From: Rhynchobatus australiae
Lineage: Eukaryota
DNA: 64,000 bases
Direction: 5' to 3'
Assembly: GCA_034780895.1 (NCBI GenBank)
Contig: JAUZTB010000087.1
Coordinates: forward strand, 23,882,424 to 23,946,423
A program made the translations under genes and the position numbers. Shown in pieces: positions 40,473 through 59,487 of this stretch. Position 1 is the stretch's first letter. Each line of letters begins with the position of its first letter. A model generated the notes under the pieces. That model saw only the letters and a program-made list of their open reading frames with translations, was not told the DNA's origin and ran no database searches.

Positions 40473-40986
40473 GTAAGTTAATTTCTAAAGATCAGTGATA
40501 TTCAATAGTTAATAGGAGAAAACAGCTGATTTTATTCAGACCGGATAGTGAAATGTTCTGGAATATACAGCATGACCAACATTTCCCCCGTTTTCTCCAC
40601 TTTCCCCCTCCTTCTGAAGACAATTACACACCAGTGGCTCACCAACTGCTGCAAGTGCATTAATTAATCCTTTTTCATTACACATGACCTGATCTAAAAA
40701 TTGCCCATTTGGTTGGTTCAACAACATATTATTCTAAGATTTCCCCAATCTGTACTATGAAGTCATCATCAAAGCTACCTTTGTGAATTTGATTTGTCCA
40801 ATCTATATGAAGGTCAAAGTCCCCCATGGTCATTGTATTAGCTTTCTGATTTTTCATCTCCTATCTGCAAGGCAGTGAAGCTGCTTATAGTGACCTCACC
40901 GGAGGAAGAATATTCCAAATATTGAAACCAGATTGGCTGTAGCTTCTTCACTGGACCTGTATTCTGTAAGTTCAATGCACAATCTG

Positions 40987-41175
40987 CCAGGCAACATCCG
41001 TGGAGAAAAGCAGGCAGTCAATGTTTCAGGTCAAGTCCCTTCCTCATGACTTAGGAAGGGTCCCAAAATGTTGACTGCCTGCTGTTCTCCATGGATGCTG
41101 CCTGGTCTGCTGAGTTCCTCCAGCATCATAGTGTTTTTCATCTAGATTCCAGCATCTACAGTTCTTTGTGTCTCA
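40987..41175. repeat. Palindromic Penelope-type repeat
   Basis: arms ccaggcaacatccgtggagaaaagcaggcagtcaa / ttgactgcctgctgttctccatggatgctgcctgg; tail matches 17370-17450. Confidence 0.7.
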
Positions 41176-42149
41176 ATGGACAATCTGCTCTACAGATTTA
41201 CAACTGATTCTCTGTGCTATATTGTTCCTGTTGTGTATTGGTAGGGCGTGTACCTGAAGAGCCTCCAAATGCCCTGTGGATATAGAATATCTTCCCAGCA
41301 CTTCCACCAAAGCCCCTACTACAGCATCAAAAACCACAGAACTTGTTTTCACCATGTTATGTGATCCTTCACTGATCACTTCCAGTGGCTGCCATCACTT
41401 GCTCCAATCACTTTGTACCTCCCCTGCAAGAAGTGCAGGTTAGCTTTACGTTTGCAGGCTGGCTTTCATGAGAGGTAGACACCAACAAGAATCATAGAGA
41501 GATGCAGCAAAAAAACGGGCTCTTCAGCACACGGAGTCCATGCCAACCATCAAGCACCCGTTTACACCAAGCCTGTATTAATCCCCATTTTATATTCTTC
41601 CCAGTTTCTCAAGATTTTGCCTTCTACTGATAGATCCAGCAAATCAACTGTGAATTAACAGTGGCCAGCCTCTGATATCATTATAATGCGCATGAAGTAC
41701 AAAATTAGTGTGCTGCCTTCATTGCAATCTCCAAACCAGAGTTAACCACATATCACAATCTCTGTACCTGTTTTTAAGGGCTATCAAATTTAGTCCCTAA
41801 TAATCAATCTCATCACTCCACTGTTGGCTCAATTGAGTTCAATAAGGGCCAGAAGAATATTGTGCTGTTAGAGAAGACAGTGCAATCCATATACCCTATT
41901 TTTGGCAACTATTCATAATATTCTAAGTTTGTAAACATTTGTCAGATAAGGATTAGAGGAGCATATTTAGTTCATGGGAACAAGTCAGCTATATTTATCT
42001 TATGTAATATAACATAAAGCCATACTGTGAGGAAGTGGCATGATAAAAGGAAAACACTATAAAAATCTAAAAAAGGCTGCTGGGAAAATTTCCATTGATG
42101 CGCAATGTGTTATTTTAGCACGTAGGAGGTACTCTACATTCAAAACAGA

Positions 42150-42722
42150 TAAGGACCTATGTTTTGCTATATAAAACTTGAGTCAGACTGCACTTGGAAT
42201 ATAGTGTGCAGTTCTAGTCGCCCCACTATAGGAAGGATGTGGATACTGTGGAAAAGGTGCAGCAGAGGTTTACCAGGGTGCTACCTGGATTAGAGGGTAT
42301 GAGCCATAAAGAAAGGTTGGACAAACTTGGGTTGTTTTCCCTAGAGTGTTGGAGGTTGAAGGGGAGGCCTGACAGAAATTTTTAAAATTATGAGAGGCAT
42401 ACTTAGGGTAGACAGTCAGTATCTTTTCCCCAAGGTAGAAATGTCAAACACCAGAGGAGATGCTTTTAAGGTTAGAGAGGGGACGTTTAAAGGCAACATG
42501 AGGGGCAAGTTTTTTATACAGAGAGTGGTAGGTGCCTAGAATGGGTTACCAAGGGTAGGAGTGGAAGCAGGCAGTTTGGTGGAACTTAAGAGGCTTTTAG
42601 ATAGACACAGGAATATGAAGGGAATGGAGGGATATGGATGATACACAGGAGGAGGACATTTAGTATAAATTGGCATCAAGATTGGCACAGCATCTTGGGC
42701 TGAATGGCCTGTCCAATGCTGT
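42150..42722 (+). mobile_element. CR1 LINE 3' end
   Basis: tataaaacttgagtcagactgcacttggaatatagtgtgcagttc (LY..LVR.HLEY.VQF) through tgggctgaatggcctgt; parallels 25505-26122. Confidence 0.88.
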
Positions 42723-43373
42723 TTTTAGAAGGTCTTTGACTAGTGATATTTGGTAAAGTGGGGATTATTTTTAATGAAGGTGTCAGCAAATTTATGATAG
42801 GTTCTCCACACCCATCCTAATTGAATCAAAGGAAAAATTCAAGGAAGGCTTCAATTTTAATCGTTTTTCACACTTAATGATCCTTTAACATTTTTCACTA
42901 TTTTATTACAGCTTGCACATTGAAATAAGAACAAAATATGTTGGAAATACTTGGAAGGTCAGGCAAAATCTGTAGAGAGAAAAACAGTTAATGCGCAGGT
43001 GAATGATGTTCTTTTTACCCTTTCCCAGTCTGATAACAGGTCATCAGCCTGAAGCATTAAATCTGTTTATTCTCTCCACAGAACCTGAACTGCTGAGTAT
43101 TTACAGCACTTTTTCTTTATTTCAGAGTTCCTTCTTCTGTGGTATTTTGCTTTTGGATCTCTTGCATTGATTTAGTATATGATACTATAGTCCTACTGAA
43201 ATTATTTGTTACAAAACACAAATAAAGTTTTGGAAGAGGCAGCAAGCTGACAGCAACTTGCATCAGTGGCATAAACATTATTAACATGAGTTTCACACAA
43301 ATAAGATATCAGGCATGATTACAACATGAGTTTGATTCTCAGTCCCTGTTCAATTATTTGAAATCAAGTGTGC

Positions 43374-43376
<3 letters not shown>

Positions 43377-43430
<54 letters not shown>
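43377..43430. repeat. (TG)n microsatellite
   Basis: about 27 perfect TG units next to a gap. Confidence 0.98.
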
Positions 43431-43432
<2 letters not shown>

Positions 43433-43589
43433 NNNNNNNNNNNNNNNNNNNNNNNNNNNNNNNNNNNNNNNNNNNNNNNNNNNNNNNNNNNNNNNNNNNN
43501 NNNNNNNNNNNNNNNNNNNNNNNNNNNNNNNNAAAGAGCTGCTTCATTACAATGACGGTCTGTGTGTACACATCTGTGTCCTTCCATTG

Positions 43590-44070
43590 AGGGGCTGTGC
43601 GTACAGACCTATGTTCTTCCAGTGAGGATCAGCTTGTACTGAGCTGTATACTTACAGTAGGGTTAAAGGTGGACAGAACTGTGTCCTGACTGTGAGGGTC
43701 AGTATGTTCACAGCTGTGTCCTCAAGGTGAGTTTCAGTCTGTGCAGAGATATGTCCTTACAGTGAGGGTCAGTGTGTACAGAGCTGTGTCTTACAGTGCG
43801 TGTCAGTGTGTAGAGGGCTGTGTCCTTACACTGAGGGTGAGTGTGTACAGAGCTGTCTTTACAGTGAGGGTGAGTGTGTACAGAGCTGTGTCCTTACAGT
43901 GAGGGTCAGTGTGTTCAGAGCTGTGTCCTTGCAGTGAGGGACAGTGTGTACAGAGCTGTGTCCTTACAGTGAGGGTCATTGTGTTCAGAGCTGTGTCCTT
44001 GCAGTGAGGGACAGTGTGTACAGAGATGTATCCTTCCAGTGTGGACCAATGTGTACAGAGCTGTGTCCTT
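43590..44070 (+). repeat. 35-bp minisatellite, about 13-14 units
   Basis: consensus ACAGTGAGGGTCAGTGTGTACAGAGCTGTGTCCTT; unit starts at 43861, 43896, 43931, 43966, 44001; degenerate toward the left. Confidence 0.95.
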
Positions 44071-44113
44071 TGTTTCAGACCCAGTTACTATTGGTGACTG
44101 TCAGATAGAGCAT

Positions 44114-44115
<2 letters not shown>

Positions 44116-44179
<64 letters not shown>

Positions 44180-44205
44180 CGCGCGCGCGCGCATGTGCAC
44201 GTGTG
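44116..44205. repeat. (TG)n(CG)n alternating purine-pyrimidine tract
   Basis: about 90 bp of unbroken R/Y alternation including (GC)7. Confidence 0.95.
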
Positions 44206-45517
44206 AATCTGGTTTTGTGCCTCTCCTTTACCAGCCCACTGAAGTTGACCATTAAGTTTCACACATGATTATTGACTACTTGAATAAGGGCGGGGAGAAA
44301 GAACACCAGACAATAAAGGAATTAATGTTTTTTAAGCATTGCAAATCTTGAATCAAATATACATCTGTGGGAGTAAAGAAATTCTAATAACTGAAAACAG
44401 AAGCAGAAAAGTTGTAGCAATCATAACAATTCATCTTCTGCAGGAAATCTGACTGAATTTTCTATTCAATCAGACAAAACTATACTCAATGCTGTGTGTT
44501 TTTGACTTCAAGAAAATGATGGATTTGTGAGTTGTCTGCATTCAGTTTGAATTCCCTGGCAATCCTATTTACATTAATGTGTTATGTATTTTATATCAGA
44601 TGGTTTGGCAGCATTGAGATCAAAGACTTTAATTTGTTTTGGTTGAGTACAGAACTGGCAGCCAGCCTGCCTTCTTCCCCCTTATACCCCTCACTCTGAT
44701 GGGAATTTCTTCCTCTTTGTAAATATTTTCAGGCTTCTGATATTTTCTTCTCAATGTTTTAGTTGTGCTGGAGCCTTTGGCATCTAGTGGGGCATGAATG
44801 TGAAAAGATTTCTAGGTCATGTTTCCTGGTCCTTATATCTGAAAGAAATTACAGTGGATCCCACACCAATAGTGCAGTGTGGTGGTGAACTGTTCTGCCT
44901 TCAGAAAAACCACAAAGAGCTCATGTTATGAATTCAAAGGTTACGAAATACCAAGAGGCCTCATGGAAATGGTCCCCATTTGTTCGATCAGCTTTTGTTT
45001 TGAAAGAACATATTTTGCTGCTTTTGCATATTTAAAAAATATTATTCATGTTCTTAAATTTTTTTGGAGTATGTTGTATCATTATTCTGATTCAGCTGAA
45101 AGTGCTCCCCCTCTGAGACTGTGGGCTCCGGGAGGGCCTTATAGCGACAGAATGGAGAATTGGTGAGGTCCAGATCAGGGGATCCTAAAAATTCCTCAGT
45201 GGTCCAAAGAAAGAATCTCACCACAATAAAATGATTTCAAAGGGGGGCCAAGATGCTCAAAATACATGTTATCTGACACAACTTTAACAGACNNNNNNNN
45301 NNNNNNNNNNNNNNNNNNNNNNNNNNNNNNNNNNNNNNNNNNNNNNNNNNNNNNNNNNNNNNNNNNNNNNNNNNNNNNNNNNNNNNNNNNNNTTTAAGTT
45401 TGTGTAGCCTACAATACTGCAGTGAAATACAAAACCTCTGAACAACTGAAATAAAAAAGTAAAAGGAAATCAAGATAAGCATGTCAGTCATAAATTATTG
45501 TAAATTATATATTGCAG

Positions 45518-45566
45518 GGTAAAAAGAAAAGGAGGAAAAGAGACAAGCAGCAAGATTCTGATCCAG
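45518..45566 (+). CDS. TCF7: TCF7 exon, basic tail / nuclear localisation signal
   Basis: attgcag|GGT...CCAG|gtacag; 49 nt, phase 0 to 1; GKKKRRKRDKQQDSDP. Confidence 0.93.
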
Positions 45567-48500
45567 GTACAGAATATTTTCACCTCATAACTACTGCTTA
45601 ATGTCTGCATTTGATTTTGAATGTGAAACCAAGTGCATCTATGGATTGAAATCGCATAGTGCAGTATTAACAAACAATGACATTTTAAAAGTTTTTTTTA
45701 ATTAAACAAGTTACTCATTATACCAATGAGCTTTGTTAAAATGGCAGTCAACAGAATTCCATACCAGTGTTCTAACAATTTACTACAATTATAACTTTGT
45801 TGATGCAAAATTAACTCACTTTAAACCCAGGCAGCAACAGGAAATAGAGTGTTACAGGAGGGGAAAAGTTGCACGACATTATTAACAACAAAGAATTTTG
45901 GATATTTGCATATGTTGTTGAACCTTNNNNNNNNNNNNNNNNNNNNNNNNNNNNNNNNNNNNNNNNNNNNNNNNNNNNNNNNNNNNNNNNNNNNNNNNNN
46001 NNNNNNNNNNNNNNNNNNNNNNNNNNNNNNNNNNNNNNNNNNNNNNNNNNNNNNNNNNNNNNNNNNNNNNNNNNNNNNNNNNNNNNNNNNNNNNNNNNNN
46101 NNNNNNNNNNNNNNNNNNNNNNNNNNNNNNNNNNNNNNNNNNNNNNNNNNNNNNNNNNNNNNNNNNNNNNNNNNNNNNNNNNNNNNNNNNNNNNNNNNNN
46201 NNNNNNNNNNNNNNNNNNNNNNNNNNNNNNNNNNNNNNNNNNNNNNNNNNNNNNNNNNNNNNNNNNNNNNNNNNNNNNNNNNNNNNNNNNNNNNNNNNNN
46301 NNNNNNNNNNNNNNNNNNNNNNNNNNNNNNNNNNNNNNNNNNNNNNNNNNNNNNNNNNNNNNNNNNNNNNNNNNNNNNNNNNNNATCCCTATAGTCTTTG
46401 CAAAACAACTATTCTTCAAACCTTTCTTGTTATTTGAAGAGGCAGAAATGCCAGAGGAGCTGTGCACCGTTTTCACCATAATAATATATTTCATCATGAT
46501 TTTCACAATAGGATAGGGCATCTTTGAACAAATGGTAAAGGAGCTTGACAAATTCTTTTTGTGAATGGTGCTTATTGATCACACTTTGACAATGAACTAT
46601 TCAGTACCTTGTACGTATTATGTTTTATACCCCTAGGTGAAGAAATTTGACTGTATATCCCTGTCCTGTTAGACTATCTTGTATAATGTAGCTTTAGATG
46701 ATTTCAGTTGTGTTGTTAAAAGCAGTTTTGTTTGATGGTGGATCCAGGGTCGATGGGTGATGTCAGGGGATCTTCCGACAGGAGCTTCTTCTGAAATGTT
46801 TGTTTCCAGAATAGTAAATGTATTTTAATGTCTGTTTAAACTAATTTTTCAGATCATATTGCTAATTTGAAAAAGAGACTCTGCCACTAAAAAAAATAAT
46901 AAAACTCAAAATATACTGTGTGGTGCTAGCCCATTTGCATAGAGTTAGCTCAGAAACAGTCATGCACACGGAAGCATACACACAATGACAGGGTAAACAG
47001 TGCACTTTACCAGAGACAGACAAACAAGCAAACACACAGAGATGGGCAGAAACACAAATGCAATTTGACAATCAGAGAAACATACATGGATTCATAGAAA
47101 CAGATGTGCAGATACATGAACAGGAAGTATATAGATGCGCAAACCAGAAGGATATAAAAACAGAAAATGCTAGAAATACTCAATAGATTAGGGAGCATTT
47201 GGAGAGAGGGAAAAAGAGAGAAGAGAGAGAGATGGATGATCTTTTATCAAAAAATTAATGCACACATTGGCAAGCACTCAAGAAGATAAAGGTAGAAATA
47301 CAGGCAAATGCACATAGTCAGAGAGCAAAGTAAATCCTAATTTTAAGCTGAGTTCCAATAAACCCTAGTTTTAATAAAGAAAACATAATCCATGAAAGAT
47401 TTTTTTTAAAGCAAATATCACTCTCACATTTTAATCTACCTTTTAATCTAATATCACATAACTCTCCATAACCATTAATCAAACTTTGATGGCTAGGAAT
47501 TGATGAATACAGAAAATGGCACTTCAGAAAGTGAAGCAGTTGTGTTTGGCTTCTTTGGTATTTGTGGTTTGGCTCCCATTGCTATTTTATTTTTAGTCTT
47601 ACAGACATTTCCATTTACATGATTAGGCTGCATGTGCAAATTTTCCACTCAGAATGAGCTTGCATGTGCAAACTATCCTTTCATTCCAAGATGTTTTAAG
47701 ATGTTGAATATTCTAATAAGTGTTAGTATGACCTGAAATACGTTATTGATTAGCGACAAACTTGGACTTTGCTTCTGGTAATTCTTGCAGGTGATCAGAT
47801 TTTTATAAAAATTTCACTGTCCTCTAGAATTGCAGCAGGTTTAGCCAGTAGTTCACAGCAAGGAATTCTGCATCTGTCAATTTAAACAGTGGTGGGAGGT
47901 TGGCAAGGCATTGAGATTGGAATGGATTTCTTTAACTTTTTGAAAGAGATCCCATTTTTCCCATCAGAACCACATTTTGTAAGAAATAGCTCTCAATTTT
48001 CCTCTTATTATGCCTATCCTCAAAATCAATGACTCACAAACATTATAATGCCAAAGCAATAGATAGGATACCTCACTGGGGCAATTCTCTCTGTTAATCC
48101 AAATGGTGACGTCACATTTTCAAATCCAGGTGAGGTGTGGGTATTGGGGTACAATTGACTTCACTGTCCCTGATGTCCACAGTAGAGTCACTAAATATAG
48201 ATGCTGAACCTGAATTAATATTTTCCTTTTCTGAACATTAAATCAAATTGTAATACTGCTGTTATTGCCCTAACTGGAATCATCTAATTCAACAGACTAG
48301 CAATCAAACCTGAAATATTTCTGTTTTGAGAGATTGGTGGAGATGGGTAGAAGAGGTTGAAAACTTGCAGAATTAATCTCACATTTCTTGTGACATGCTT
48401 CAGCTTTTAATGAGTTCCCTTAATTGTAACTTTGCTTTATCTGAGTCCTGCTGCCTTTTGTTTGCAAACATGTCAAAATTTTTTGCTTTTGCTCTTTTTT

Positions 48501-48785: not shown

Positions 48786-48858
48786 ATCCAAGCTCTCCTA
48801 AGAAATGCCGGGCACGCTTTGGCCTTGACCAACGGACAGACTGGTGTGGCCCTTGCAG
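48786..48858 (+). CDS. TCF7: TCF7 alternative C-clamp (CRARF) exon
   Basis: long polypyrimidine tract then ttcag|AT...TGCAG|gtgtgt; 73 nt, phase 1 to 2; (D)PSSPKKCRARFGLDQRTDWCGPC(R). Confidence 0.95.
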
Positions 48859-49440
48859 GTGTGTATTTTGTAGCCTAATGGTCTGCATTAGCCAATCTTG
48901 TCACCAGGTGCCTCTATGTTCAGACTTGTAGGACTTGCAGATATCAAACTGTGCAAATGTTGCAAAGAGGCAGCAATGGTCTTTCTCCTGCTGGCTTGAA
49001 TTGGCCTGGGTTTGAGATGATATTAAGCTCACACATCTGTTACACTGTTACACCACTTCAAGCCAAATTAGCTTCAAAAGAGCTGAGAACCACAATATCA
49101 CAGAACTGCCACCATCTTGATTTAGTGGTCTTAAAACTGATTTGTTATCTCGATGGAGTTCTCGCACATTGGGATGATTGGAAGCTACTTTAGGACAGAG
49201 TCTCTTGTTCGAAAGCTATGCAGTGAGATTTTTCATAGTTTTGAAGTGCAATCTATAAAAGCCTACAACATGAAAAGCAAAAGGCAATCTCTTTAAACCC
49301 ACATTTTCTTTTCTGGTTGAATATTCTGTGTGGAGCCTGCTGTTGCTTTTCCGGCTCAGCAGAATTGCATACTAACTCCATTTTTTCATATAACAAAACA
49401 TGTTCCTCCATTGTTGTTTTTGTTTACTTCACACTAACAG

Positions 49441-49513
49441 ATGCAAACACCACAATGATGTGTCGCCCATTGTTCGAGCTTGATCTGCAATAGATGCGGT
49501 GCCTCTCCTGCAG
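49441..49513 (+). other. TCF7: Second, degenerate C-clamp-type exon (CRALF-like) of TCF7; stop codon in either entry phase
   Basis: cactaacag|ATGCAAAC...TGCAG|gtaccc; 73 nt like the CRARF exon; phase-1 entry gives (D)ANTTMMCRPLFELDLQ*MRCLSC(R); phase-2 entry after the CRARF exon gives (R)CKHHNDVSPIVRA*; TACTAAC at 49370-49376. Confidence 0.8.
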
Positions 49514-50589
49514 GTACCCACAATTACTCTATCTTTAACCTGCTTGTGTTTTTTTTATTACAATTTTTTGACCAAACTTTTCTTACCTGTTCAACAGAGG
49601 CTTCCACAAAGGAGGTCATCTTTATGGAGAAAGGATCTGGCACACCTGTTTTTGCTTAGGTGGAAGTAATAACAAACGTTAGTAGCACTACCTCACATTT
49701 CCATCACGGTGACATTGCACTCAAGTAATATCATGATGTTGATAACAATTTTGTCACCACATCTTTTGCAAACAGGCATGGAAAAAAAGGTTTGCCAAAG
49801 ACTTCTGCATGAAGGTGATTCCCTTTAATGTAACTGTAGACAGTCTCAGCTTGGAGCCAGAAGTGGTGTGAAGATGGAAGAGAAAATGGGTCTTTGTAAA
49901 TAAAATAACAATTCTTGAACAAGAAATTATGAAGTCAACATGTCAGGACTGTGTTTAGCACACATAAAACAGCTCCACACGAAATATAACTTCATCTTCG
50001 CAAGAAATCTTTGCAGCTACAGTGAAATAGAAAGATAATTGTGTCTTTTGTGGGACAGATGATATATGTAACTCAGGATGAAATACCACACATTACACTC
50101 ACCTTTTTATCATCTCAGGTATCGATCATATCATTTTCTTATTTAGTTCAAAAGTGTGTAAGTGAGATCTTTTTAAATAGTTGTTGAATATTTGTGACAT
50201 GAAGGTGTATTTGTACCAAAAATGTTTTTGTGGGTATTGTCCCACTTAGTGCAGTTGCATAGGTTGTTGTGGGTGATATGATCAGGTTTTTTATTAAATA
50301 TTTGTGAGTGGGGACTAGTGCTGACTTTCCACATGATCACCACATGATTTTACCTGAAACCTGATCACCAGATCTGCAGAGACCTATTGCCAGTGACATA
50401 ATCACTTAATGATACCAAGGAACAGAAATAAGACAGCCAGCCCTGAAGCCAATTCTACCATTTAATTAGATCGTAAAGGATTTGTATTTGAACTCTATTT
50501 ATTTGTGAATTTTAGTCTTGTCCCAGCAACCACAGGCATTTGGGAGAGATCTTTCTCCTCCCTCTGTAAGTAAAATTGCTTCCTGATTT

Positions 50590-56578: not shown

Positions 56579-59487
56579 TTAATCTTGATAAACTTCTACT
56601 TCTGAAATCAGTGTCATCTCATTAACATCATCACAGTCCTGCTGCCACAAAATAGGACCAACAATGCCTATGAGACTAATGTTGTTACATCTTTGTAATT
56701 GTTGGCAGGAAATTCTTTCAAATCTCATAAACTGTTAATTTTTTTGCAGTAGCAATTTTATAGCATATTATGAAACCAATTGTATTCTGACTTATGCCCC
56801 TTTTTTTGATATCTGCCAATCCAGGTACAAGCCATCTGAATTCTTTCATTAGATTCTACTTCGTGACTCATTCCCGGATAGTTTTTATACCCTTCCTGTG
56901 GTAACAAGTTCCATGCTCTTGCCACTTTTTGAATAAAGAGATCTCTCTGGATTCCCTGGCTGCTCCATTCCTCCAAGGGTCATTACTTACAATGAGGGCT
57001 CCATGGATGAAAGCAGCTTCTGATACTTTGTATTGATATATAACTCTAGAATATGAATGTTGTCAGGTCATTCAGTCAGAACATAGCTCAATCCTTTTCT
57101 CACCTGATCTATGTGCTGGCAGCATTCCTTGGTGATTAGAAACATCACACCAGACTTCACTTTCTTCAGACCTGACAACATTGAGGCCAGTTGACCAGCC
57201 ACCACCATCAAGCCAGCCAGCACCCACAATCCCAGTGTTAACCAGACCTCAAACCCACATCCTTCCCAGTATGGCTCAATATTACATAAATGCATCCAAT
57301 TAGCCTCACTGGGACATATGTACATCAACATGGTTTCTATTATTCTCTTTCCATTATTAGCNNNNNNNNNNATGGTATTTTCCAATGTCTGACATTGTTA
57401 ATTTTTTATTGCACCTTATACTGACAACAACTTTTGAGTGATAAAATACTGTTTCATAAGATAACAGACATGAAGGTGACTAGATACACAGCATTCTACA
57501 CTACATCGATCTTTTGCGTAAATTATGGCTCCATTTTTATATTGTTATAACTACAGTTAGCTGCATTGTTAGCAATTTATTGTACTGTTTCATTTATACT
57601 GGATGTGTTGATTGTGAAAGTGATGTATCTTAGAAAATCACTCAGAAGTTTACTTCAAGTTAAGTATGATGTTCAGTAATCTCTCAATTTTCATTATTCA
57701 CTTTCAAATGTATATCCATGTCGATTTCAAACTAGATTGAGAGAAAGCATTTTTCTTCACCTCCAGGAGCTGGGCTGAAGTCCAGCCTAGATAGAGATGT
57801 ATGTTTTCTTTCACTGCTGACTACAAATGGACTACAATGATTTTCCAGTTCCTAGACATGACCAACATGACAAAACCTGTTCACCACTAGGGAAAAATGA
57901 GAATTAAATTCACTGACTCACTAATAGAGGTCACAAGAATATGTGTGATTTCTGGCATAAGGGGGCTCTAAGGGTAAACCAGTACTCACCAGTTCAGTGC
58001 TTTCCTGTGTTCTGAATTGTGACTGAAAGAAAATAGGAATCTTCATCGTGGCACAGGAGGAAGTGGACTTCCAACATCGACATCAAGGCACTTAAGTCAT
58101 GAGATACAAGCCCAAGGTTAAATGTGATTCCAAATCAAAACCACTACTAAATGGGCTTGTTGTTGTCTGTACTTATTTCAGGAGGAGAGTACGCCTTGAG
58201 TTGAGACTTGCGACTTTAGAGTACAGGGCACATCACTGACCTTGAACTAAATCAGGAGTTCTTGCTGGGAGCACTAATGAATAGCGAAAACTGTTCCAGC
58301 TCAAGCAATGGAATAGCTCATTTTGTGGAATGCTAGAAAAACTCAAAAATATAAATTTTAAATTTGTAACAATCATCAAATACAGTCTTGTTTTAAATCT
58401 ACCCTCCAGTCCCTCTTGATTTTTAATAATTCTGAATCTAAAGTATATCATGAGAAATTATGCCCCTCAAATGCTGTGCATTATGTGTATACCAGTAATG
58501 AAATCCAACAATAAACCAAAGAGCAGCAGTCATATAATCATGCAAAAAAATTATAACTCAAACATGTAAGAGGAGAATGGTGGGATACACTTTTTCTTGT
58601 CCCTCACACAGTTCTCCACACATGGAAATACCTCACTAATCCCAGAGGCTATATTCNNNNNNNNNNNNNNNNNNNNNNNNNNNNNNNNNNNNNNNNNNNN
58701 NNNNNNNNNNNNNNNNNNNNNNNNNNNNNNNNNNNNNNNNNNNNNNNNNNNNNNNNNNNNNNNNNNNNNNNNNNNNNNNNNNNNNNNNNNNNNNNNNNNN
58801 NNNNNNNNNNNNNNNNNNNNNNNNNNNNNNNNNNNNNNNNNNNNNNNNNNNNNNNNNNNNNNNNNNNNNNNNNNNNNNNNNNNNNNNNNNNNNNNNNNNN
58901 NNNNNNNNNNNNNNNNNNNNNNNNNNNNNNNNNNNNNNNNNNNNNNNNNNNNNNNNNNNNNNNNNNNNNNNNNNNNNNNNNNNNNNCCATCTGATTGAGT
59001 AAACTGTTTACCATTGTGTAGTTCCTCGGAATTTTCAAAGCTTCAATTTCAACTATCCCAGTTTCGTTACTCTTTTTGTCATTATTTTAAGATCTAGTGC
59101 TGCACATCTAAGATAACTACTGTACCCTATTCAGGTCATTCCTTCCCCCCTTATCACCACTGACTGAATTACAGGGAAGGAAATAGCCCGTTTCTACATT
59201 TCCATCAATTCAGTCTGAAGCAACAGGAACGCCATGAAAATGAAACTGACTAACACTCCCTTGCCCTTTCCTTGCCTTAAAATGCCTCACCCGAAGGGAC
59301 TGACTGATTTCAGGAGCACATCTGTTGAGAAAACTAGGGAAAAATTCACATTTCCTAGTTCTGTGGCACTTATTATTGCCTTGTGTGCTGGGTCTTCACA
59401 TTTAAGTTTTGAGATTTCAGGCTTGACAGCTGGTTCTTTTACGTGAATCTACACTTGCTTATACATAACTCTTCTCGCTGTTCTCAG

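Follow-up and report, generated by a model that had tools for sequence, protein, structure and literature searches.

Results and Discussion

The 73-nt block at positions 49441-49513 of the window (the whole stretch of 64,000 nucleotides of Rhynchobatus australiae DNA that was analysed) is, to judge from its sequence, the orthologue of TCF7L2 exon XII' (exon 15, 13a) lying in TCF7, and not a new duplicate. Taking the data as a whole, the best explanation, which we consider probable, is that an exon that could be swapped for its twin in the C-clamp was turned into a dominant clamp-off exon, and that bony-vertebrate TCF7 lost XII' and uses an alternative acceptor. The feature is deeply conserved and is already contained in automatic annotations, but it is unrecognised there. 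It shows cleanly how an exon that once coded for a domain can persist for hundreds of millions of years although a stop codon has destroyed that domain, and it concerns truncated C-clamp isoforms, whose role has been little studied.

Identity of the Locus

The earlier note had assigned the gene to TCF7, and this assignment was upheld. In a protein match search the last exon was 98% identical to TCF7 of Pristis pectinata, and all 14 matches came from cartilaginous fishes. SKP1 is located about 15 kb downstream of the TCF7 end and a VDAC gene 350-400 kb upstream, and VDAC-TCF7-SKP1 is the gene order around human TCF7. The genome contains four TCF/LEF HMG exons that are intact and a further copy that is broken, the other three paralogues being separate loci: TCF7L2 on contig C17, recognised by both twin exons and two PLSL motifs, a gene of the TCF7L1 type on contig C75, and LEF1 on contig C64, where the LEF1 asparagine is present. 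The TCF7-diagnostic residues of the HMG box are given as T or V at position 2 and I at position 22 (PMC9303524). The window TCF7 has T at position 2, where the other three paralogues have H; at position 22 it has V and not I, as do the four TCF7 sequences of cartilaginous fishes tabulated in the same paper, and I at position 22 is a bony-vertebrate trait. In line with TCF7 membership, a C-clamp is present and the E tail is devoid of a CtBP (PLSL) motif.

The broken HMG-box fragment, the fifth (C118:76703121-76703222), is closest to the TCF7L1-type gene and is probably a pseudogene. LEF1 has a second SKP1-family gene (C64:130136897) at a distance of about 0.4 Mb, and TCF7L1 a VDAC gene (C75:2967754-2972287) at about 0.5 Mb, which is consistent with a retained genome-duplication paralogon.

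The features of the window discussed below are the following.

45518-45566, + strand: exon XI (basic tail/NLS; common upstream exon), 49 nt, ending in phase 1 and matching the GKKKRRKRDKQQDSDP segment of relatives' models
48786-48858, + strand: exon XII, the intact CRARF exon, which codes for the first three cysteines of the C-clamp; 73 nt long, with 61/73 positions the same in TCF7L2 exon XII
49363-49440, + strand: XII' acceptor region, with a 76-nt AG-free zone, a consensus branch-point heptamer close to the 5' end of that zone at 49370-49376 and a second ACTAAC at 49433; over its last 30 nt it agrees with the acceptor of TCF7L2 XII' at 27/30 positions
49441-49513, + strand: exon XII', a decayed CRALF twin, 73 nt with AG/GT flanks and two frames each ending in a stop
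49481-49483, + strand: TGA, the S-frame stop (XII plus XII'), final codon in 20/20 S-frame models listed
49491-49493, + strand: TAG, the C-clamp-frame stop (XII' without XII), final codon in 22/22 C-frame models listed, including chimaera
59463-59487, + strand: putative homologue of the C/D upstream acceptor, with AC and not AG at 59463-59464 and a peptide like the bony D tail at 5/7 residues
59488-59797, + strand: coding part of exon XIV, with the fourth C-clamp cysteine, the basic cluster and the E tail; the B tail is in the other frame and there is no PLSL-type CtBP motif

Many shark TCF7 models have a 21-residue exon between X and XI. It was not detected in the window, where the intron concerned (40473-45517) contains two N stretches that could hide it; the best tblastn match (E 0.19) was elsewhere.

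Exon XII' and Its Two Reading Frames

The exon-shaped block was found as the earlier note had described it, 582 nt after the CRARF exon, and the two readings with their in-frame stops were confirmed from the sequence. Behind exon XI (phase 1) XII' reads DANTTMMCRPLFELDLQ and then TAG, giving a 17-residue stub, and behind the CRARF exon it reads RCKHHNDVSPIVRA and then TGA, giving a 13-residue S tail; the two stops end 20 nt (TAG) and 30 nt (TGA) before the exon end. The marks of a functional C-clamp half are absent from XII', in which the motif is CRPLF and the stop precedes the second cysteine. The product of XII plus XII', as found in predicted models, has three of the four clamp cysteines followed by a frame-shifted short tail, which is the definition of the S type. 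No C-terminal Pfam family was assigned to either short tail.

A genome-wide DNA search with XII' and its flank returned two matches, XII' itself and the TCF7L2 CRALF exon on contig C17 (84% over 79 nt, E 2.3e-14). When the two exons of each paralogue were compared, 11 informative sites grouped the four exons as XII and XII' across the paralogues, none grouped them by gene, and one crossed. The 30 intronic nucleotides before the XII' copies were identical at 27/30 positions between the paralogues, as against 9-16/30 in the other five pairs, and for the exon itself identity between the paralogous XII' was 50/73 versus 38-40/73, the values that bear on descent from XII' as against a new duplication of XII. 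These comparisons place the origin of the twin before the separation of TCF7 and TCF7L2, as had been proposed on first inspection of the locus.

The exons 14 and 15 of TCF7L2 (TCF4) correspond to XII and XII' (CRARF and CRALF) and give rise to the E, S and M isoforms (PMC2847248; PMC9303524). Twin arrangement, exon length, phase and acceptor flank are the same in the ray TCF7, and co-inclusion likewise shifts the frame and leads to a truncated clamp of the S type. The difference lies in XII' alone, which in TCF7L2 builds a working clamp (E3/E4), whereas in cartilaginous TCF7 its fixed stop never allows this. In the ray TCF7L2, XII' (C17:16577295-16577367) has no S-frame stop and co-inclusion reads into the third frame of exon XIV, unlike in human TCF7L2, where the stop is reported to lie within exon 13a (PMC2830605).

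Occurrence of Exon XII' in Public Protein Models

The splicing evidence for XII' consists of predicted RefSeq/UniProt models. As a rule, NCBI isoform models require RNA-seq support. The 108 cartilaginous TCF7 models listed (up to 15 members per cluster, each count being therefore at least the number given) comprise 22 with the C-frame stub at their end, 20 with the S tail, 46 with the E tail and 15 with the B tail, plus five others. One or both readings of XII' were present in 19 of the 22 species represented among these models, the remaining three (Hypanus, Mustelus and Pristiophorus) each being covered only in part. All four elephant shark (chimaera) records listed end in the C-frame stub and none has the S frame. 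One of these records has the full N-terminus, which is missing from the Ensembl-type model, and exon 1 is reported to lie in an assembly gap (PMC9303524); since the N-terminus is full despite the gap, the stub record probably rests on cDNA.

The same TAG codon is found in models of rays, sharks and chimaera; it is thus real and shared, and no assembly or consensus error. As it is common to all the C-frame models listed, including those of elephant shark, the TAG predates the chimaera-elasmobranch split. The proteins with a truncated C-clamp that had been expected from the two readings exist as annotated isoforms in relatives, predicted in both cases and both devoid of a complete C-clamp. Both XII' readings are already contained in predicted cartilaginous TCF7 isoforms (for example XP_051870507.1, XP_067852280.1, XP_042195795.1, UniRef100_V9KEE4), which are automatic and often misnamed (as TCF7L2 or LEF1-like), and in which the origin of the tail from a decayed C-clamp twin is unstated.

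Neither XII' reading was found in 298 bony-vertebrate TCF7-family models, a sample of annotated proteins to which the coelacanth and lungfish isoform sets do not belong. A lone bony match to the CRALF pattern was rejected as XII', being exon XII with an R>L change, so that the CRALF motif alone does not identify XII'. In Callorhinchus TCF7 (PMC9303524 supplement) and in Carassius, exon XII itself reads CRALF through independent R>L changes.

Proposed Clamp-off Function and the Bony-vertebrate Isoforms

In the mechanism that we favour, XII' gained the C-clamp-frame stop and lost the basic residues before the first cysteine in the ancestor of the cartilaginous fishes, and it has stayed nearly fixed since then, as annotated proteins show. 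In TCF7L2, XII and XII' are interchangeable clamp halves, with two of the four splice combinations giving a clamp, and in mouse TCF7L2 the CRALF and CRARF clamps were reported to work alike, either twin building an active clamp (PMC2847248). In cartilaginous TCF7 the clamp would come from XI-XII-XIV only: XII' alone would lead to the 17-residue stub with one cysteine, XII together with XII' to an S-type protein without the fourth cysteine and the basic cluster, and skipping of both to the B tail. On these reading frames, inclusion of XII' would be a dominant clamp-off choice.

Since fewer than 50 nt separate either stop from the last junction, the standard rule predicts that the mRNAs are spared by NMD, if XIV is the last exon; NMD escape and a role as off-switch can reasonably be inferred. 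The short proteins would keep the beta-catenin domain, the HMG box and the basic tail, and from the behaviour of mouse TCF4S/M and of fly clamp mutants they would be expected still to bind HMG sites but no longer to recognise helper sites, to be poor activators of helper-dependent targets and to compete with the E form. Mouse TCF4S2 and M1 were reported to bind DNA but to fail to activate the promoters of Axin2 and Cdx1, and TCF4M/S isoforms still occupied Cdx1 in the same study (PMC2847248), so that the lack of activation cannot be put down to lost binding alone. Helper-site binding by fly TCF is described as requiring all four cysteines together with the basic cluster, and the clamp as also restraining HMG binding at unpaired sites (PMC3896468). 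It counts against the clamp-off explanation that the B isoform is already without a clamp, and what XII' adds to it is not obvious.

In bony vertebrates, the C and D isoforms of TCF7 are described as arising from an upstream alternative acceptor on exon XIV (PMC9303524, section 3.3). Of the 298 bony models 29 were D and 15 were C, as compared with none of either among the 108 cartilaginous models listed, which use XII'. In the window, 23 nt homologous to the C/D segment are recognisable at 59465-59487 (DNA checked in one ray), preceded by AC; the ray TCF7L2 has AG at the matching place, which suggests that the ray TCF7 lost the acceptor AG. Bony-vertebrate TCF7 appears to have lost XII' and to make equivalent short isoforms (C and D) by the alternative acceptor. 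The gene is the same in both lineages, and the B, C, D and E isoforms of bony TCF7 (TCF1; PMC9303524) are of the same four kinds as the cartilaginous products: a full clamp, a three-cysteine stub, a short clamp-less tail and a B tail. The two jawed-vertebrate lineages thus seem to reach similar sets of clamp-less TCF7 isoforms by what are probably different routes, which argues that such isoforms are under selection.

Orthology to TCF7L2 exon XIII was considered for the DNSL-type tail of bony TCF7 and rejected: no matching micro-exon was found in either ray gene, human exon 13b is reported to add only two residues (PMC2830605), and the tail fits instead the known D isoform from the upstream acceptor (PMC9303524).

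Constraint on Exon XII'

Substitutions in XII' were inferred for eight lineages with both readings (one of them pairing two Scyliorhinus species), the DNA being inferable from the proteins since two overlapping peptides fix the nucleotides almost uniquely. Seven independent changes were found in nt 1-43 of the exon in sharks and rays: three are silent in the C frame, four change both frames and none is silent in the S frame. Selection in the C frame (lnL -6.3 to -7.0) and frame-blind constraint (lnL -7.2) are not distinguishable on these seven substitutions. Between the ray and Narcine one change was visible, whereas the baseline of a neighbouring cryptic exon predicts 5.3 (Poisson P 0.03); by the Fisher test the comparison, with a baseline of one 21-codon stretch, was not significant (P 0.12). 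The stretch that served as this neutral baseline, at 46636-46698 of the window, is homologous to an exon used in two Narcine TCF7 models and contains two stops in the ray.

Past the S-frame stop, the L-Q-stop codons were unchanged in every C-frame model listed, including chimaera, and the codons read in the C frame only were unchanged except for D>E in chimaera. The C-frame stub is identical at 14/17 positions between ray and chimaera and is thus as well conserved as the constitutive exons V-VIII (74-90%). The exon had been called dead in the C-clamp frame; owing to the stop this is true of it as a C-clamp, but not as a reading frame, since the C-frame codons are conserved. The best reading of this conservation is that the constraint acts on XII' in its capacity as a splicing unit under regulation, and possibly on the stub peptide as well, rather than that the S tail is selected.

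A rather unlikely alternative assigns XII' a role at the RNA level only, as a poison-like or alternative last exon that lowers full-length TCF7, the peptides being by-products and the conservation that of splicing signals. The seven changes are fitted nearly as well by frame-blind constraint as by C-frame selection, the acceptor flank (27/30) is more conserved between the paralogues than the exon (50/73), and poly(A)-type hexamers occur at 49899, 50293 and 51164. On the other hand, the donor site is retained in XII' of both paralogues, and nt 1-43 differ less between them than nt 44-73 (9/43 vs 14/30, P 0.02), the control exon XII pointing in the same direction (5/43 vs 7/30, P 0.21). By the usual rule a stop triggers NMD when the last junction follows it at a distance of more than 50-55 nt; with stops no more than 30 nt from the next junction XII' is poorly placed for this, and at 20 and 30 nt, if XIV is the last exon, it does not fit an NMD-coupled poison exon.

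As to the splicing signals themselves, the XII' acceptor is more than 500 nt from the exon XII donor, at which distance co-inclusion should not be sterically blocked. Branch-point and QKI-type motifs have known consensus sequences, and a bipartite QKI-type element, one of eight on the + strand of the window, was located at 49371-49394. One of its cores doubles as branch point and it is not shared with TCF7L2. The element is a candidate control site for the inclusion of XII', and none of the papers listed by a literature search connected QKI with the XII' exon. Positions 49370-49438 are the only place on the + strand of the window with two ACTAAY cores within 75 nt.

The stub peptide might also have acquired a function of its own at the C-terminus, with a nuclear export signal (NES) of the CRM1 type as the most plausible candidate, in which case inclusion of XII' would both remove the clamp and shift TCF7 from the nucleus. 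This reading, rather improbable in our estimate, is compatible with the clamp-off explanation. The class 1a NES is defined by a consensus spacing of hydrophobic residues, and all five elasmobranch stub variants tested fit it, whereas the TCF7L2 twin fits no pattern; the same number of random changes applied to the TCF7L2 exon yielded class 1a in 0.9% of the trials and one or another of the strict patterns in 3.3%. Moreover, the changes among species spare the hydrophobic positions or are conservative (L>M, D>E), and the codons past the S stop are conserved. However, the idea is post hoc; the chimaera stub fits only the relaxed pattern, and this when a cysteine is counted, which leaves class 1a spacing in 5/6 stub variants; 21% of stub shuffles match as well, as does the HMG box of the same protein; and a proline lies within the would-be helix. 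No support for CRM1 export of TCF7 isoforms was found in a literature search. The full scenario, in which a duplicated DNA-binding exon became a C-terminal NES more than 400 million years ago, a single splice choice deletes the C-clamp and relocates TCF7, and bony vertebrates replaced this brake by the alternative acceptor, appears likewise rather doubtful; if true, cartilaginous fishes would have a splice-controlled brake on Wnt output.

The view of the earlier note, that selection has moved to the S frame and the exon is kept for the short tail produced by co-inclusion, was not supported and is very unlikely. S-tail models occur in 12 species, with the TGA fixed in those listed, and the codon details brought forward for it were correct: read in the S frame, G>E leaves the residue unchanged, and one of the K>M changes becomes a conservative E>D. 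These two examples are, however, a selected pair among the nine paralogue differences in nt 1-43, of which four are silent in the C frame and one in the S frame. The better paralogue conservation up to the S stop is the sole result that leans towards selection on the S tail. None of the seven lineage changes is S-silent and three are C-frame-silent; the probability of none in seven under S-only selection (omega 0.2) was 0.0006-0.0016, or about 0.001-0.002, and the likelihood of S-frame selection at this omega was 4.6-5.2 lnL units below that of the neutral model. In the control, the dual-frame start of exon XIV, seven changes were found, three silent in each frame and one in neither. In addition, the S peptide begins with C, F or Y depending on the lineage, no S-frame model occurs among the four chimaera records, and the ray's own TCF7L2 is without the S-frame stop.

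That XII' is a neutral relic included through splicing noise is most improbable: its donor looks weak, substitution rates are slow in cartilaginous fishes, and gene predictors emit noisy isoforms, several one-species tails being present, but the stop position and 14/17 stub residues are the same across the chimaera-elasmobranch split, as in constitutive exons, and the annotation recurs in 19 species.

Age of the Twin and the Published Model

In PMC9303524, XII' is recorded for TCF7L2 and for TCFa of hagfish, and its origin is dated to a time before the genome duplications, in agreement with the age given here for the exon duplication. In its model, which includes four cartilaginous species, the TCF7-LEF1 ancestor is given as "probably having lost" XII', and the cyclostome XII' evidence has synteny affinity to the TCF7L1/L2 side; the ray locus gives the missing evidence from the TCF7 side. 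The published model of TCF/LEF evolution is corrected accordingly: when TCF7 and TCF7L2 separated, at the first genome duplication in the tree of PMC9303524, either side had the twin C-clamp exon, and it was lost later and separately from LEF1, from TCF7L1 and, as far as annotations show, from bony-vertebrate TCF7. A search for remnants of the two exons XII and XII' was negative over 60 kb at the LEF1 locus and over 40 kb of the TCF7L1 locus, a stretch that may not cover the whole 3' end of the latter; the best DNA match in this search (E 0.006) was beyond the last exon of LEF1.

No description of XII' in any TCF7 was found in the open literature, the scope of the search, with subscription journals largely outside it. 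The motifs of the XII' stub do not appear for TCF7 in the available part of the PMC9303524 supplementary tables, where shortened cells could hide tails, and the accessible text of PMC2830605, PMC4963812 and PMC4999783 makes no mention of a twin exon in TCF7.

A later arrival of XII' in TCF7 from TCF7L2, by gene conversion or insertion in early cartilaginous fishes, would deprive the exon of dating value and could account for the very high identity of the intronic acceptor flank (27/30) and the absence of XII' from bony TCF7 models, but it is extremely unlikely, as position and order (582 vs 277 nt after XII) agree with those in TCF7L2, a gene on another chromosome, the greater divergence of the exon than of its flank indicates constraint and not recent copying, and XII' is also reported in hagfish TCFa (PMC9303524).

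Two further observations concern TCF7 tails in other species. In the models of Cuculus (cuckoo) the exon after XII is read in two frames, as XII' is, and its likeness as a possible XII' remnant is borderline (P 0.048 against XII' and 0.011 against TCF7L2 exon XII, in four comparisons). In the skates Amblyraja and Leucoraja only six residues of the E tail follow the fourth clamp cysteine, the B tail being shorter as well, and in some skate models the basic-tail exon is skipped and the XII' stub is reached through exon XII in the third frame.
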